Source: an uncultured Erysipelotrichaceae bacterium (lineage in GTDB: Bacteria; Bacillota_I; Bacilli_A; RF39; UBA660). Taken from it: 64,000 nucleotides of DNA. Shown piece by piece: positions 1-5,222 of the stretch. The notes beneath the pieces were generated by a model. That model did not search any database, was not told the origin of the DNA, and saw only the letters and a program-made list of their open reading frames with translations. Within the stretch, counting starts at the first letter, position 1. Every line of letters begins with the position of its first letter. A program made the translations under genes and the position numbers. The stretch is from positions 9 through 64,008 of the forward strand of contig CAOJRP010000005.1 of assembly GCA_948442015.1 (NCBI GenBank), in the 5' to 3' direction.

Positions 1-63
1 TTATTAGGCTTTGTGTTATGAATCTCCCCACTTTGGAAACACTATCGAGTACTGAAAGTCTAT

Positions 64-92
64 TTGACTTTCTAAATCTTATGTGTTATTAT
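64..92 (+). promoter_or_regulatory. Sigma-A-type promoter candidate for the repeat-RNA/toxin unit
   Basis: TTGACT (64-69), 17-nt spacer, TATTAT (87-92) with TG at 84-85. The 8-bp inverted repeat CTTATGTG/CACATAAG (78-85 / 98-105) brackets the -10. Confidence 0.4.
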
Positions 93-123
93 ACTAGCAC
101 ATAAGAAATTATGTAATTGGTTG

Positions 124-214
124 CATTGTGAAAAATTTTCGAGGAACATATTAGTCAACCATATACTTACATTTTGAATAGCGTTGTGAAGATTTTTCGA
201 GGAACATATTAGTC
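124..214 (+). repeat. Two 33-nt direct repeats (124-156, 182-214; 30/33 identical; 58-nt period). Candidate toxI-like antitoxin RNA repeats or operator sites.
   Basis: CATTGTGAAAAATTTTCGAGGAACATATTAGTC vs CGTTGTGAAGATTTTTCGAGGAACATATTAGTC, read directly. No ORF; located between the promoter and the terminator. Confidence 0.45.
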
Positions 215-222
215 TATTCGTT

Positions 223-256
223 AGAAACTCTATTATATAGGGTTTCTTTTTGTTTT
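223..256 (+). terminator. Intrinsic terminator between the repeats and the toxin gene
   Basis: 11-bp hairpin 223-233/237-247 (AGAAACTCTAT / ATAGGGTTTCT, one G-U pair) followed by TTTTGTTTT. The AGGAG RBS (261-265) and ATG 273 follow. Confidence 0.6.
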
Positions 257-272
257 AGATAGGAGTGAAATA

Positions 273-644
273 ATGATAAATGGTCAAATATATTATATAG
301 ACTTTAATGGAAATAAAGGTTCTGAAATTAATGACACTCATTTAGGCATTATATTTACAATACCAAAGATAAATAATATGGTATTTTGTATTCCATTAAC
401 TAGCCCTAAAGAAAAACACTTTAAAACTTTAAAAGACTTTAATAACAGAAATTATTTAGAATTAAAATATCAAAATTTAGTATATATCAATCAAACTGAC
501 TCAATAGCATTATTAAATCAAATGAGAAGTATTTCTATAAAAAGACTTTTAAAGCCATACAAAAATATTGTATTAAATGAAAAAAACATTCAATTACTAG
601 TAACTAAAACGACAAAATACATTAAAAATATATTGAAAAAATAA
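273..644 (+). CDS. PemK/MazF-fold, ToxN/AbiQ-like endoribonuclease toxin (123 aa)
   Basis: N-terminal GQIYYIDF..GSE..H.GIIF resembles the PemK motif. FCIPLTSPKEKH resembles the ToxN YLAPLTSPKKWH segment as I recall it. A C-terminal LLNQMRSISIKRL-type strand is present. RBS AGGAG sits 7 nt upstream. Confidence 0.55.
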   Translation: MINGQIYYIDFNGNKGSEINDTHLGIIFTIPKINNMVFCIPLTSPKEKHFKTLKDFNNRNYLELKYQNLVYINQTDSIALLNQMRSISIKRLLKPYKNIVLNEKNIQLLVTKTTKYIKNILKK

Positions 645-823
645 ATAAATACATAAATAATAAATTTTCTTACAAAGTAAAATTGACTACTATATAAGTA
701 ATAGTCATACGATTAAAGACCACAGTCATTTTCACATACGTCGACACGCTACAGTTAATAAAAGCTAAGTTTTATTACTAGATAATATAAATTTATTTTA
801 TGAAATACAAATATGAATTTAAA

Positions 824-1735
824 TTAATTTAAATATTTATCAACAACTATACTTTTATCTTTTGGATTTATTTTCACCTCAACACCAATAGGAATAATAC
901 TATTTCCATGAAGATGTCCAAAATCATTAGTTTTTACTATCTTAACATCCTCGTTTATTTTTCTTAACTCTGAAACAATACTATATTTATTATTTTCTAC
1001 AGATTGTAATTGATAGATATAGCCGAAAACTACTGCTTTATTTAAAAAGCCACATTGATTTAGTTGTTCTAACATCGTATTCCAAATAACTATATCAGCT
1101 CTATACTTTTCTAAAAATAATATAGCATTACTTAAATCAGGTAAATAAGGAGTTCCAATTAACTTTAACATACTACTTGCATTAGTTCCATATATTTTCC
1201 CACTAATTACCTCATTTCCAAAATTATAAAATTCTCTAATATCATAAGGAATAATAGTTTTATTTCCATTAAATAACTTATCAACAACTTCGTTTTTATC
1301 ATACTCAGTAACATCATTTTTACCAAACCAAAGATAATCTTGACAATGAAAAGTTACAAGATTGGTCATTTTATTAATAGCACACAATAAAACTGTAATG
1401 TCACTATATCCTAGAAAAATTTTGGGATTATTTTTTATATTTTCAAAATCAATATATGGTAATATTCCATTAGCCATCTCTCCACCTTTTAAAGTAAAAA
1501 TAGCTTTAACATCTTTATCACTAAACATATTGTTTAAATCTTCTGCTCTTTCTTTCGGAGTTCCTGCACAATAATTATCATCCGAAAATAAATATTTACC
1601 ATATTTAACTTTTAATCCTAAACTTTCAAAATATTTAGTAGCATTTTCTAAATATACTTTATCATCTGTTTTTAATGCCTTATCTGGAGCAATAACTCCA
1701 ATTGTATCCCCAACACTTAATTTACTTGCTAACAT
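824..1735 (-). CDS. LD-carboxypeptidase, peptidase S66 family (LdcA/MccF-like)
   Basis: GYSDIT nucleophile motif, C-terminal FGHLHGN His motif, about 300 aa as typical for S66. Confidence 0.75.
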   Translation of the reverse strand: MLASKLSVGDTIGVIAPDKALKTDDKVYLENATKYFESLGLKVKYGKYLFSDDNYCAGTPKERAEDLNNMFSDKDVKAIFTLKGGEMANGILPYIDFENIKNNPKIFLGYSDITVLLCAINKMTNLVTFHCQDYLWFGKNDVTEYDKNEVVDKLFNGNKTIIPYDIREFYNFGNEVISGKIYGTNASSMLKLIGTPYLPDLSNAILFLEKYRADIVIWNTMLEQLNQCGFLNKAVVFGYIYQLQSVENNKYSIVSELRKINEDVKIVKTNDFGHLHGNSIIPIGVEVKINPKDKSIVVDKYLN

Positions 1736-4398: not shown

Positions 4399-4577
4399 AT
4401 ATAAAGCCTCCTTAATAAAATTATAGCATTATTTATTGTTTTAATAGAAAAAATTTTTTAAAAAGTTCTTGATTTCAAAACATTTGTTTGTTATTATATA
4501 TTTATAAACAAATTTTAAACTATAAAAAATATTTAAAGAGCTTTAAAAAATTAACAAGTTTTATTAAGGGGGAAAAT

Positions 4578-5222
4578 ATGAAAGATAAAACTAAACTTTT
4601 AAGATTATTAGAAACACATAATAACAATATAAAAATATCAAATTATAATTTAAAGGATAAGTTTACTAACTTTGAAATATCAAAATTAGATGAAAGCTGT
4701 ACCTTACTGTATGAAATTCAAAATAATCCTAAAACTTTTAAAAGATATTCTCGTGGATCCATAATAAAAGTTAAATTCGGAGTTAATATAGGAAGTGAAT
4801 TCTCTGGAGATCATTATGCTATTGTTTTATCTAAAGGTTATAGTATGTACAATCCAATATTACATGTTATTCCTTTAACTTCTGATAATAGTCCACATAA
4901 TATAAATCTAGGAAATATATTGTATAATAAAAATAAAATAGATGAATTAAATGAATTATATAAAACTCAAAAAAATTTTAAAAATCTTAAAGAAATTAAA
5001 AATTGTATAAATTATTATTCTAAAAATAAAAACAGAAATTCTTTTGCTTGTATAAAACATATAAATACTATAAGCAAATTATCCATTATAAAACCAATAA
5101 ATAAATTTGATTATCTACACAAATTAAAATTAAGTAAAGAACAATTAAATATTATAGATAAAGCAATAATAAAAGAATATACAAATATAAATATTTTAAA
5201 AAACAAAATAATAAATCCTTGA
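4578..5222 (+). CDS. PemK/MazF-like domain protein with an approx. 85-aa N-terminal extension (orphan toxin candidate)
   Basis: GSIIKVKFGVNIGSEFSGDHYAIVLS ... VIPLTS ... INTISKLSIIKP is paralogous to the 273-644 product. The start was moved to ATG 4578 because of the AAGGGGG RBS. It ends in TGA. Confidence 0.5.
   Translation: MKDKTKLLRLLETHNNNIKISNYNLKDKFTNFEISKLDESCTLLYEIQNNPKTFKRYSRGSIIKVKFGVNIGSEFSGDHYAIVLSKGYSMYNPILHVIPLTSDNSPHNINLGNILYNKNKIDELNELYKTQKNFKNLKEIKNCINYYSKNKNRNSFACIKHINTISKLSIIKPINKFDYLHKLKLSKEQLNIIDKAIIKEYTNINILKNKIINP

Follow-up and report, generated by a model that had tools for sequence, protein, structure and literature searches.

A structured two-domain RNA ahead of a MazF-like toxin gene in uncultured gut Bacilli: a probable new family of type III-like toxin-antitoxin systems

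The stretch of DNA analyzed here, referred to below as the window, comprises 64,000 nucleotides (nt) of the forward strand of contig CAOJRP010000005.1, from an uncultured Erysipelotrichaceae bacterium (assembly GCA_948442015.1). Near its left end lies a compact module in which a promoter, two copies of a structured RNA domain, an intrinsic terminator and a gene for a PemK/MazF-like toxin of 123 amino acids (aa) follow each other, and this module is the subject of the present work. The module is chromosomal and sits in a variable stretch, with an LD-carboxypeptidase gene adjacent to it and a transfer RNA (tRNA) gene and rpoC about 5.5 kb away. Its features are the following.

54-72, + strand: palindrome HP1, GAAAGTC-TATTT-GACTTTC, the 3' arm of which includes the -35 hexamer
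64-92, + strand: promoter P1 of the sigma-70 type, with TTGACT at 64-69, 17 nt, and a TG-extended TATTAT at 87-92
77-106, + strand: palindrome HP2, centred on the -10 box, with arms TCTTATGTGTTATTA and TACTAGCACATAAGA
99-114, + strand: 5' GNRA-loop hairpin ACAUAA-GAAA-UUAUGU, where the RNA is predicted to begin
116-163, + strand: RNA domain D1, with closing helix 118-124/154-161, inner helix 127-129/146-148 and apical hairpin 133-140
123-156 and 181-214: the two repeats, 34 nt each, identical at 31/34 positions, with a period of 58 nt
162-175, + strand: A/U-rich linker between D1 and D2, UUACAUUUU
174-221, + strand: RNA domain D2, with closing helix 176-182/212-219, inner helix 185-187/204-206 and apical hairpin 191-198
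223-256, + strand: intrinsic terminator, with a stem at 223-247 (11 pairs, loop of 3) followed by the T-run TTTTTGTTTT
261-265, + strand: ribosome-binding site AGGAG, 7 nt before the ATG at 273
273-644, + strand: toxin open reading frame (ORF), 123 aa

An initial annotation of this stretch had read it as a type III-like toxin-antitoxin unit, and the promoter, the 11-bp hairpin with its T-run, the ribosome-binding site and the 123-aa ORF that it described are all present. It had also reported two 33-nt repeats, identical at 30/33 positions and separated by divergent 25-nt spacers. The repeats were found within one base of this description, but they are not loose direct repeats with spacers, as inspection of the flanks revealed each of them to be the conserved core of a stem-loop domain of ~48 nt. 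The flanks indeed differ between the two copies, because they form each domain's own closing helix, and what had looked like divergent spacers are the halves of these closing helices plus a linker of 13-18 nt. The closing helix (P1 of the RNA) has 7 pairs, the outer five of which differ between D1 and D2; an inner helix (P2) of 3 bp is formed between UGU and ACA, and the apical hairpin (P3) is variable. The 5' loop strand GCAUUGUGAA and the 3' loop strand GAGGAACAUAUUAG are both conserved, and seven unpaired positions of the domain are invariant or nearly so. A kink-turn reading of the GA-rich internal loop was tried and rejected, as it meets an extra nucleotide and a G at the 2b position in a third of the copies.

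Related loci were obtained from a scan of 185,579 species genomes, which yielded 56 toxin loci, and two viral contigs were added to them. Nearly all of the genome loci belong to metagenome-assembled genomes (MAGs) of gut Bacilli or "Tenericutes" that are uncultured; their hosts are rabbit, roe deer, chicken, mouse and human. The order of RNA domain(s), terminator and toxin gene, which the initial annotation had suggested looking for in related genomes, is kept in 53/53 genome loci with enough upstream sequence. In nearly all loci the repeats precede the toxin start by ~135 and ~75 nt (period 57-63 nt), and they can be traced in orthologous loci down to ~48% protein identity. The annotation was right to count two repeats; it had taken this low number as a deviation, but two is the normal number in this family of MazF-like toxins.

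A covariance model of the domain, built from 18 copies, recovered both domains of the window (116-163, 59 bits, E 4e-14; 174-221, 58 bits, E 9e-14) and gave no further hit in its 64 kb. Searched against 354 kb of sequence, the model returned 116 hits, all of them on the toxin strand and adjoining the toxin gene. In the model-based alignment of 105 distinct domain copies, standard pairs occupy 96.7% of the cells, both partners have changed in 11 of the 13 pairs, and compensatory changes account for 244 cells; these pairing values were matched by 0/500 shuffles, and slid controls were only 25-40% paired. Since such an alignment is fitted to the model, the count was repeated for the whole leader of 37 loci, aligned with MAFFT without regard to structure; in this alignment the closing and inner helices of D1 and D2, together with the apical stem of D2, are 96-100% paired (97-100% for the helices of D2). 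Also, a non-Watson-Crick pair (columns 17 and 40 of alignment A5, corresponding to A132/G141 in D1 and A190/G199 in D2 of the window) covaries strictly, with 91 cases of A.G, 11 of C.U and none of A.U or C.G. This pair lengthens the apical helix, and its neighbours are an invariant G, A and G, which could form sheared pairs. The minimum free energy (MFE) fold of 174-221 yields all three helices of D2. The support for the structure of this RNA, and for its association with the toxin, is very strong.

Upstream of D1, the 5' hairpin is present in both the MFE and the centroid folds of 99-256. Its GNRA loops in relatives read GAAA, GUGA, GUAA and GCAA, and its stem is changed on both sides in one locus (L013); only about one locus in two has it, and 54% of the cells are paired. 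An extended closing helix formed by 111-116 and 168-173, a rival to this hairpin, was rejected at 15% pairing across the loci. Searches with Rfam 15 returned only tRNAs and noise, and no known RNA family was found at the leader, whether in window 1-900 (E <= 10), in the whole window (gathering thresholds) or in ten related loci (E <= 5); the toxin-associated motifs pemK (RF02913) and abiF (RF03085) were among the models that gave no match.

The terminator is the only terminator-like site within positions 1-1000 (shuffles lead one to expect 0.1), and its fold reaches -10.7 kcal/mol, with z = -4.5. In 53/53 loci, the last upstream domain and the toxin start are separated by a hairpin with a T-rich tail, and in the MAFFT alignment the terminator stem is 88% paired, with changes in both partners for 7 of its 10 pairs. 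The interval between the terminator and the toxin gene of the window is too short to hold a separate promoter. Toxin expression must therefore depend on read-through, a dependence that would correspond to the ratio-setting logic of type III systems. GGAGG-like sites occupy the position of the ribosome-binding site in the related loci.

As for the protein, the initial annotation had described a PemK-like toxin carrying a segment of the ToxN type (PLTSPK..H), shorter and more MazF-like than the known type III toxins, and proposed profile and structure comparisons, which bore out both affinities. The toxin passes the Pfam threshold for PemK_toxin (PF02452; 35 bits against a cut-off of 23.1) and remains below that for ToxN_toxin (PF13958; 18.5 bits against 25); the PADLOC AbiQ profile matches weakly (17.6 bits, E 8.6e-4), and the scores fall far below the NCBIfam MazF equivalog cut-offs. 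A search of the PDB with the family profile returned MazF, PemK and EndoA chains only, all of them weak (E 0.04-0.4), and no ToxN, CptN or TenpN chain at E <= 10. The AlphaFold model, computed from 72 homologues, has a predicted local distance difference test (pLDDT) score of 94, and its best Foldseek matches are the MazF proteins of Staphylococcus aureus, Mycobacterium tuberculosis and Bacillus subtilis (template modelling, or TM, score ~0.72, E 7.5e-6). CptN (4RMO) comes at rank 39 (TM 0.59/0.49), after 38 MazF-family chains, and TenpN is absent from the top 50.

The likeness to ToxN resides in the catalytic loop. The hhalign comparison places P41-L-T-S-P-K46-E-K-H49 of the toxin against P50-L-T52-S53-P-K55-K-W-H of ToxN (reference sequence verified by its 100% identity to pECA1039), PLTSPK being identical in both. 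Among the 72 family members PLTSPK is invariant or near-invariant, and the longer motif P41-L-T-S-P-K46-x-K48-H49 is nearly invariant. In ToxN, residues Thr52, Ser53 and Lys55 are catalytic and are positioned by Ala49, Pro50 and Leu51 (PMC8860590). No residue of the toxin was aligned with ToxN Lys33. When the toxin is aligned to Escherichia coli MazF, its invariant H23 falls on R29 and its T43 on T52, the catalytic positions of MazF, and the GSE motif is conserved. According to these models, the toxin is a MazF-sized, MazF-fold ribonuclease (RNase) with a ToxN-type catalytic loop. A word search gathered 200 clusters of homologues, and the family is isolated: 22 of 1.84 billion representatives were found at E <= 1e-10, followed by a gap.

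Neither the interval from the promoter to the toxin nor the 180 nt downstream contains a + strand ORF that could encode a protein antitoxin, in agreement with the initial annotation. The only + strand ORF of at least 25 aa before the toxin (18-104) overlaps the promoter, and its first third falls within positions 1-46, which are unrelated in L001, the locus whose protein is 93% identical to that of the window and which offers 2.1 kb of upstream sequence. The annotation had also considered that an antitoxin might be encoded just upstream of position 1. None was found: an all-versus-all comparison of ORFs of at least 40 aa, in a region reaching from 1.8 kb before to 2.2 kb after the toxin start, detected no conserved neighbouring protein gene across 57 loci, L001 included. 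The sole recurring ORFs run antisense to the toxin gene or, in 5 loci, through the repeats; a peptide encoded by the repeats was dropped as a candidate, as this read-through ORF occurs in those 5 loci only and is absent from the window.

These data bear on whether the gene could encode an ordinary type II MazF-like toxin, the protein antitoxin of which would be a very small ORF or lie elsewhere in the genome, with the RNA playing an unrelated role. Such a reading agrees with the name that NCBI gives to one family member ("type II toxin-antitoxin system PemK/MazF family toxin"). The toxin also shares with MazEF/PemIK (Kid-Kis) the Pfam PemK_toxin assignment, which was passed at threshold, the structural match to MazF, the GSE motif and a Thr that corresponds to T52 of MazF. 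Nevertheless, unlike in MazEF/PemIK, no adjacent MazE/PemI-type antitoxin gene is present, and the catalytic Arg of MazF (R29) is replaced by an invariant His; unlike ordinary MazFs, the family is sharply separated. Moreover, no ORF of at least 40 aa is conserved beside the toxin in the 57 loci, none is found in the window, and the module enters varied contexts, including prophages, as a unit and always with the RNA. We regard this explanation as very improbable.

The toxins of type III systems are endoribonucleases of a MazF/Kid/CcdB-like fold (Blower et al., 2012, PMC3401426; PMC5086642). In the definition of these systems (Blower et al., 2012), a terminator precedes the toxin gene, as it does here at 223-256, and repeats stand after the promoter and before the terminator, which is also the case here, except that they are not perfectly tandem (34-nt core, 58-nt period). 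TenpIN operons with two repeats have been described. The toxin has the PLTSPK catalytic loop of ToxIN/AbiQ, with Thr-Ser-x-Lys after Pro-Leu, without reaching the Pfam threshold of the ToxN/AbiQ family, and family similarity to CptN or TenpN was not found. Unlike the toxins of ToxIN, CptIN and TenpIN, which have ~155-170 aa, it has 123 aa and is nearer to MazF in sequence and fold.

The closest functional precedent, experimentally characterized, is the RCd22/AbiF pair of the Clostridioides difficile prophage phi027 (abiF motif, RF03085; bioRxiv 10.1101/2025.04.15.648962). RCd22 contains two hairpin motifs, one of 33 and the other of 35 nt, with a single-stranded spacer of 19 nt between them; they are followed by a Rho-independent terminator, a ribosome-binding site and the toxin gene. 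The RNA binds and neutralizes the homodimeric AbiF toxin in cis and in trans, with no cleavage between the motifs (bioRxiv 10.1101/2025.04.15.648962). Processing of the RNA is thus not obligatory in such a system. The module shares with RCd22/AbiF the succession of promoter, two hairpins, terminator, ribosome-binding site and toxin, the lack of any promoter in between, and the existence of prophage-borne copies. It differs in that AbiF is an Abi_2/AbiD/F protein and not of the MazF fold, and in that the RNA motif is unrelated (RF03085 has no match in window 1-900 at E <= 10). Also, neutralization was demonstrated by experiment for RCd22/AbiF, whereas the present family is known from sequences and models.

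We consider that the element, a small selfish or defence module, is likely to be a toxin-antitoxin system of the type III-like kind, which possibly also acts in abortive infection, and all computationally testable predictions of the type III-like reading made by the initial annotation held. The MazF fold and the ToxN loop, together with the missing protein partner, strongly suggest that the toxin would be an endoribonuclease neutralized by the RNA; its toxicity, the direct binding of RNA to protein, the stoichiometry, any processing and the biological role are likewise inferences. In our model, a constitutive promoter would drive a non-coding RNA of ~150 nt, with two stem-loop domains of ~48 nt that share purine-rich internal loops. 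Most transcripts would end at the intrinsic terminator and occasional read-through would give the toxin mRNA, so that the RNA would be made in excess of the toxin. The latter, a MazF-fold endoribonuclease with the Thr-Ser-x-Lys catalytic loop of ToxN and presumably a homodimer, would be bound directly by the RNA domains, which would block its active sites. The simplest stoichiometry would be one two-domain RNA per toxin dimer, and, by analogy with RCd22/AbiF, a model in which this occurs without processing is the simplest one; cleavage of the CAUC linker by the toxin may or may not be an additional step. Once the RNA is no longer synthesized, or is broken down, for instance when a phage infects the cell or the element is lost, the toxin would be set free and would cleave cellular or phage RNA.

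Several arrangements other than two domains ahead of a toxin gene were encountered among the related loci and in metagenomes.

L041-L043, L045-L048, L050-L055: third RNA domain in the 3' untranslated region (UTR) of the toxin, ~15-45 nt past the stop
L063, 4421-4468, and L064, 4416-4463: third-domain copies on viral contigs
L084, 2072-2176 (- strand); L068, 7483-7568 (- strand); L071, 2839-2886 (- strand); L077, 1095-1142 (+ strand); L067, 119-166 (- strand); L074, 3444-3491 (- strand): orphan RNA units
L082, 709-756 (- strand): leader with -10 palindrome, GNRA hairpin and D1
L028, 137-187; L029, 2330-2379; L046, 2876-2923; L085, 783-831 (- strand): single-domain loci

The third domain characterizes a distant subfamily (L041-L055, 47-52% identity), in which the 3' UTR copy is followed by a small palindrome and then by the final terminator. 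The two viral contigs, from IMG/VR, have this three-domain form and carry it directly after tail-fibre, holin and endolysin genes (L063 1993-4468, L064 2311-4463); the site after the lysis genes is where prophages usually carry accessory or defence genes. A pattern search of metagenomes that started from the RNA gave 14 contigs with full model hits, five of which have the toxin, and the remaining ones are orphan RNA units with no toxin in the available sequence. In L084, promoter, D1, D2 and terminator are followed by a tRNA gene on the other strand, and the orphans of L071, L077 and L067 consist of a single domain and a terminator.

The occurrence of the domain in the 3' UTR and as a free-standing unit argues against the leader being purely cis-acting, that is, a two-domain 5' UTR which would be bound by the toxin or another factor and would set termination at 223-256 or translation. 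Such a leader would limit the expression of the toxin and not its activity, which would be controlled elsewhere, unless the protein were a benign RNase. The position of the RNA as a leader and the terminator just before the ribosome-binding site are in line with cis control, and there are parallels among toxin-associated RNAs. The pemK motif (RF02913) lies upstream of pemK genes in Firmicutes. This structured RNA was named for the pemK toxin genes in the screen of Weinberg et al. (2017), and Rfam files both it and abiF RF03085 as cis-regulatory. The RNA of the window is set apart from the pemK motif by the lack of a match to its model (window 1-900 at E <= 10; ten loci at E <= 5). RCd22 also cuts abiF transcription 17-fold, which indicates that cis control and neutralization can coexist. 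However, no alternative antiterminator pairing is conserved in our alignments (the 111-116/168-173 helix is paired in 15% across loci), the 3' UTR copy and the toxin-less orphan units with their own promoter and terminator would be left unexplained, and no other antitoxin candidate is conserved. A purely cis-acting role of the leader appears unlikely to us, though not negligible.

The linker between the domains has a CAU(C/U) core, constant in 31/31 distinct linkers compared, and we can only guess that it is a processing site or a protein contact. Another variant of the module is found in L082, where the leader is joined to ~250 nt of unrelated, possibly structured sequence and a terminator, and then to a PBECR3 nuclease gene (ORF on the - strand, ~300 nt downstream of the domain, Pfam 59 bits). 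This is a single instance, which hints at modular reuse of the RNA with another RNase toxin. The constancy of the CAU(C/U) core, the association in one locus of the 5' part and D1 with PBECR3, another RNase gene, and the existence of orphan copies would all suit an RNA that serves as a substrate, sensor or decoy, for example a stable RNA whose cleavage by the toxin or by a phage factor triggers or tunes a response, or that acts as a small RNA (sRNA) with other targets. But without an inhibitor, the cell would have to tolerate a conserved and intact RNase of the MazF/ToxN type, and strict co-occurrence together with a ratio-setting terminator fits neutralization better. We find such roles for the RNA improbable.

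The region of the promoter shows further conserved elements. The promoter P1 scores 10/12, which makes it the top promoter-like site within window 1-1000, and by inspection most related loci have a -35 element TTGA(C/T)T and a -10 element TGnTAnnAT at a spacing of ~17 nt. Transcription would start at about 99. This promoter assignment is plausible, yet it is complicated by two findings: both hexamers lie within conserved palindromes, and most relatives have an additional TATAAT box upstream. HP1 (-8.5 kcal/mol, z = -3.5) is conserved, and its arms co-vary among the loci, for example as GAAAATCA/TGATTTTC; its + strand RNA is more stable than its - strand RNA in 27 loci versus 12 (Wilcoxon p = 0.003, the loci not being independent). 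HP2 has arms of 15 nt that are 87% complementary (-13.8 kcal/mol, z = -6.2), one of its pairs shows six standard pair types across the loci, and the + strand fold is preferred in 27 loci versus 11 (Wilcoxon p = 0.0005, the loci here again not being independent). HP1 and HP2 may be operators, or else RNA hairpins of a longer transcript that starts upstream. In most relatives (L001 1957-1972), the additional box, CATATAATAGAGTTAG, a perfect TATAAT, forms the left boundary of the conserved module; it may represent a second, upstream promoter. The upstream box ATAGAGTT had been considered as an antiterminator that would pair with the 5' arm of the terminator; this candidate was dropped because the box would lie upstream of the start of any transcript of its own TATAAT and because the similarity is gone in distant loci.

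Direct repeats near a promoter, with palindromes over its -35 and -10 elements, could also suggest that the repeats act as DNA, either as operator or iteron sites through which a DNA-binding protein would control the promoter or as recombination sites of a mobile cassette. The four single-domain loci could be cited in its favour, as they resemble products of recombination between both repeats: they retain the 5' half of closing helix 1 and the 3' half of closing helix 2, so that their closing helix cannot pair, and they look like deletions that arose in this way. On the other hand, the compensatory changes keep three nested helices and tolerate G.U, which is the signature of single-stranded RNA and not of a duplex bound by protein, and the repeats are located downstream of the promoter and upstream of the terminator, with a third copy in the 3' UTR. 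A function of the repeats as DNA is in our view exceedingly improbable.

A number of observations weigh against the type III-like interpretation that we prefer. Thermodynamic folding alone fails to single out the domains, and the case for the structure accordingly rests on covariation: taken alone, the domains fold weakly (~-6 kcal/mol, z near 0), and 99-256 as a whole folds with z = -0.4. Weak thermodynamics is common in RNAs that are stabilized by tertiary contacts or by protein. In the window, the apical stem of D1 is weakened by G133A and T135A relative to L001. The sequences compared are related to each other, and the covariation counts thus overstate the number of independent events. In ToxI and CptI the repeats are head-to-tail pseudoknots, whereas here the units are hairpins with closing helices of their own and a linker, and no motif is common to the flanks of each unit, which leaves processing mediated by the toxin unsupported. 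The palindromes at the -35 and -10 elements hint at an extra layer of control that is absent from known type III systems. Finally, the upstream TATAAT box is missing at window 31-46, because positions 1-46 are unrelated to L001 and the sequence diverges exactly at the box.

Many copies of the module adjoin tRNA genes (downstream of the toxin in L006-L009, L016, L022, L033, L035, L038 and L039), and one circular 1.2-Mb genome and one MAG hold two copies each (L054 and L055; L023 and L024). Together, the tRNA-gene neighbours and the genomes with two copies suggest that the module is mobile. No protein match was obtained in the phage GenBank collection, and the plasmid collection contained only distant, longer PemK proteins, without the RNA. 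In the window, a hairpin (GACUACUAU-AUAA-GUAAUAGUC, 685-706) is located ~40 nt past the toxin stop and has no T-run; it could be a 3' stabilizer or the right edge of the module. Similar hairpins also follow the stop in L018, L023, L035 and L040.

The window contains a second PemK-like gene, on the + strand (listed ORF 4488-5222; 214 aa from the ATG at 4579, that is 4579-5222, with the ribosome-binding site AAGGGGG). Its product has an N-terminal extension of ~60 aa and the motifs GSE...H and IPLTS, and it scores 25.9 bits with Pfam PemK_toxin; the RNA covariance model has no hit near this gene. Long PemK proteins resembling it adjoin rep genes on plasmids of Firmicutes and Fusobacterium, and three plasmid loci with such long PemK genes gave no Rfam hit.

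Reviews and a 2025 survey recognize ToxIN, CptIN and TenpIN as the only type III families, and in the literature that we searched we found neither a fourth type III family nor a description of the present one. The loci described here probably constitute a new family of type III-like toxin-antitoxin systems. The three known type III families all use toxins distant from MazF, and a fourth one, if confirmed, would make the evolutionary link between protein-controlled and RNA-controlled RNases testable, as it would combine a MazF-fold toxin with a ToxN loop. It would also add a compact inhibitor pair, made of a hairpin domain of ~48 nt and a protein of 123 aa, and would flag many annotated "orphan type II PemK/MazF toxins" as mislabelled. 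A bolder idea, which we see as possible though doubtful, is that the family forms an evolutionary bridge between type II MazF and type III ToxN, with a MazF-sized dimeric RNase, the ToxN active site, an unprocessed two-hairpin RNA inhibitor and an RNA scaffold that may be modular, as it occurs in free-standing "immunity" sRNAs without a toxin, in the 3' UTR copy and once in the PBECR3 fusion. If true, this would indicate that hairpin-type RNA antitoxins form a wider, unrecognized class in the Bacilli of the gut and in their phages. Its presence in uncultured gut Bacilli and, in prophages, directly after the lysis genes also makes the module a candidate system for anti-phage defence or prophage maintenance in a little-studied part of the gut microbiome.

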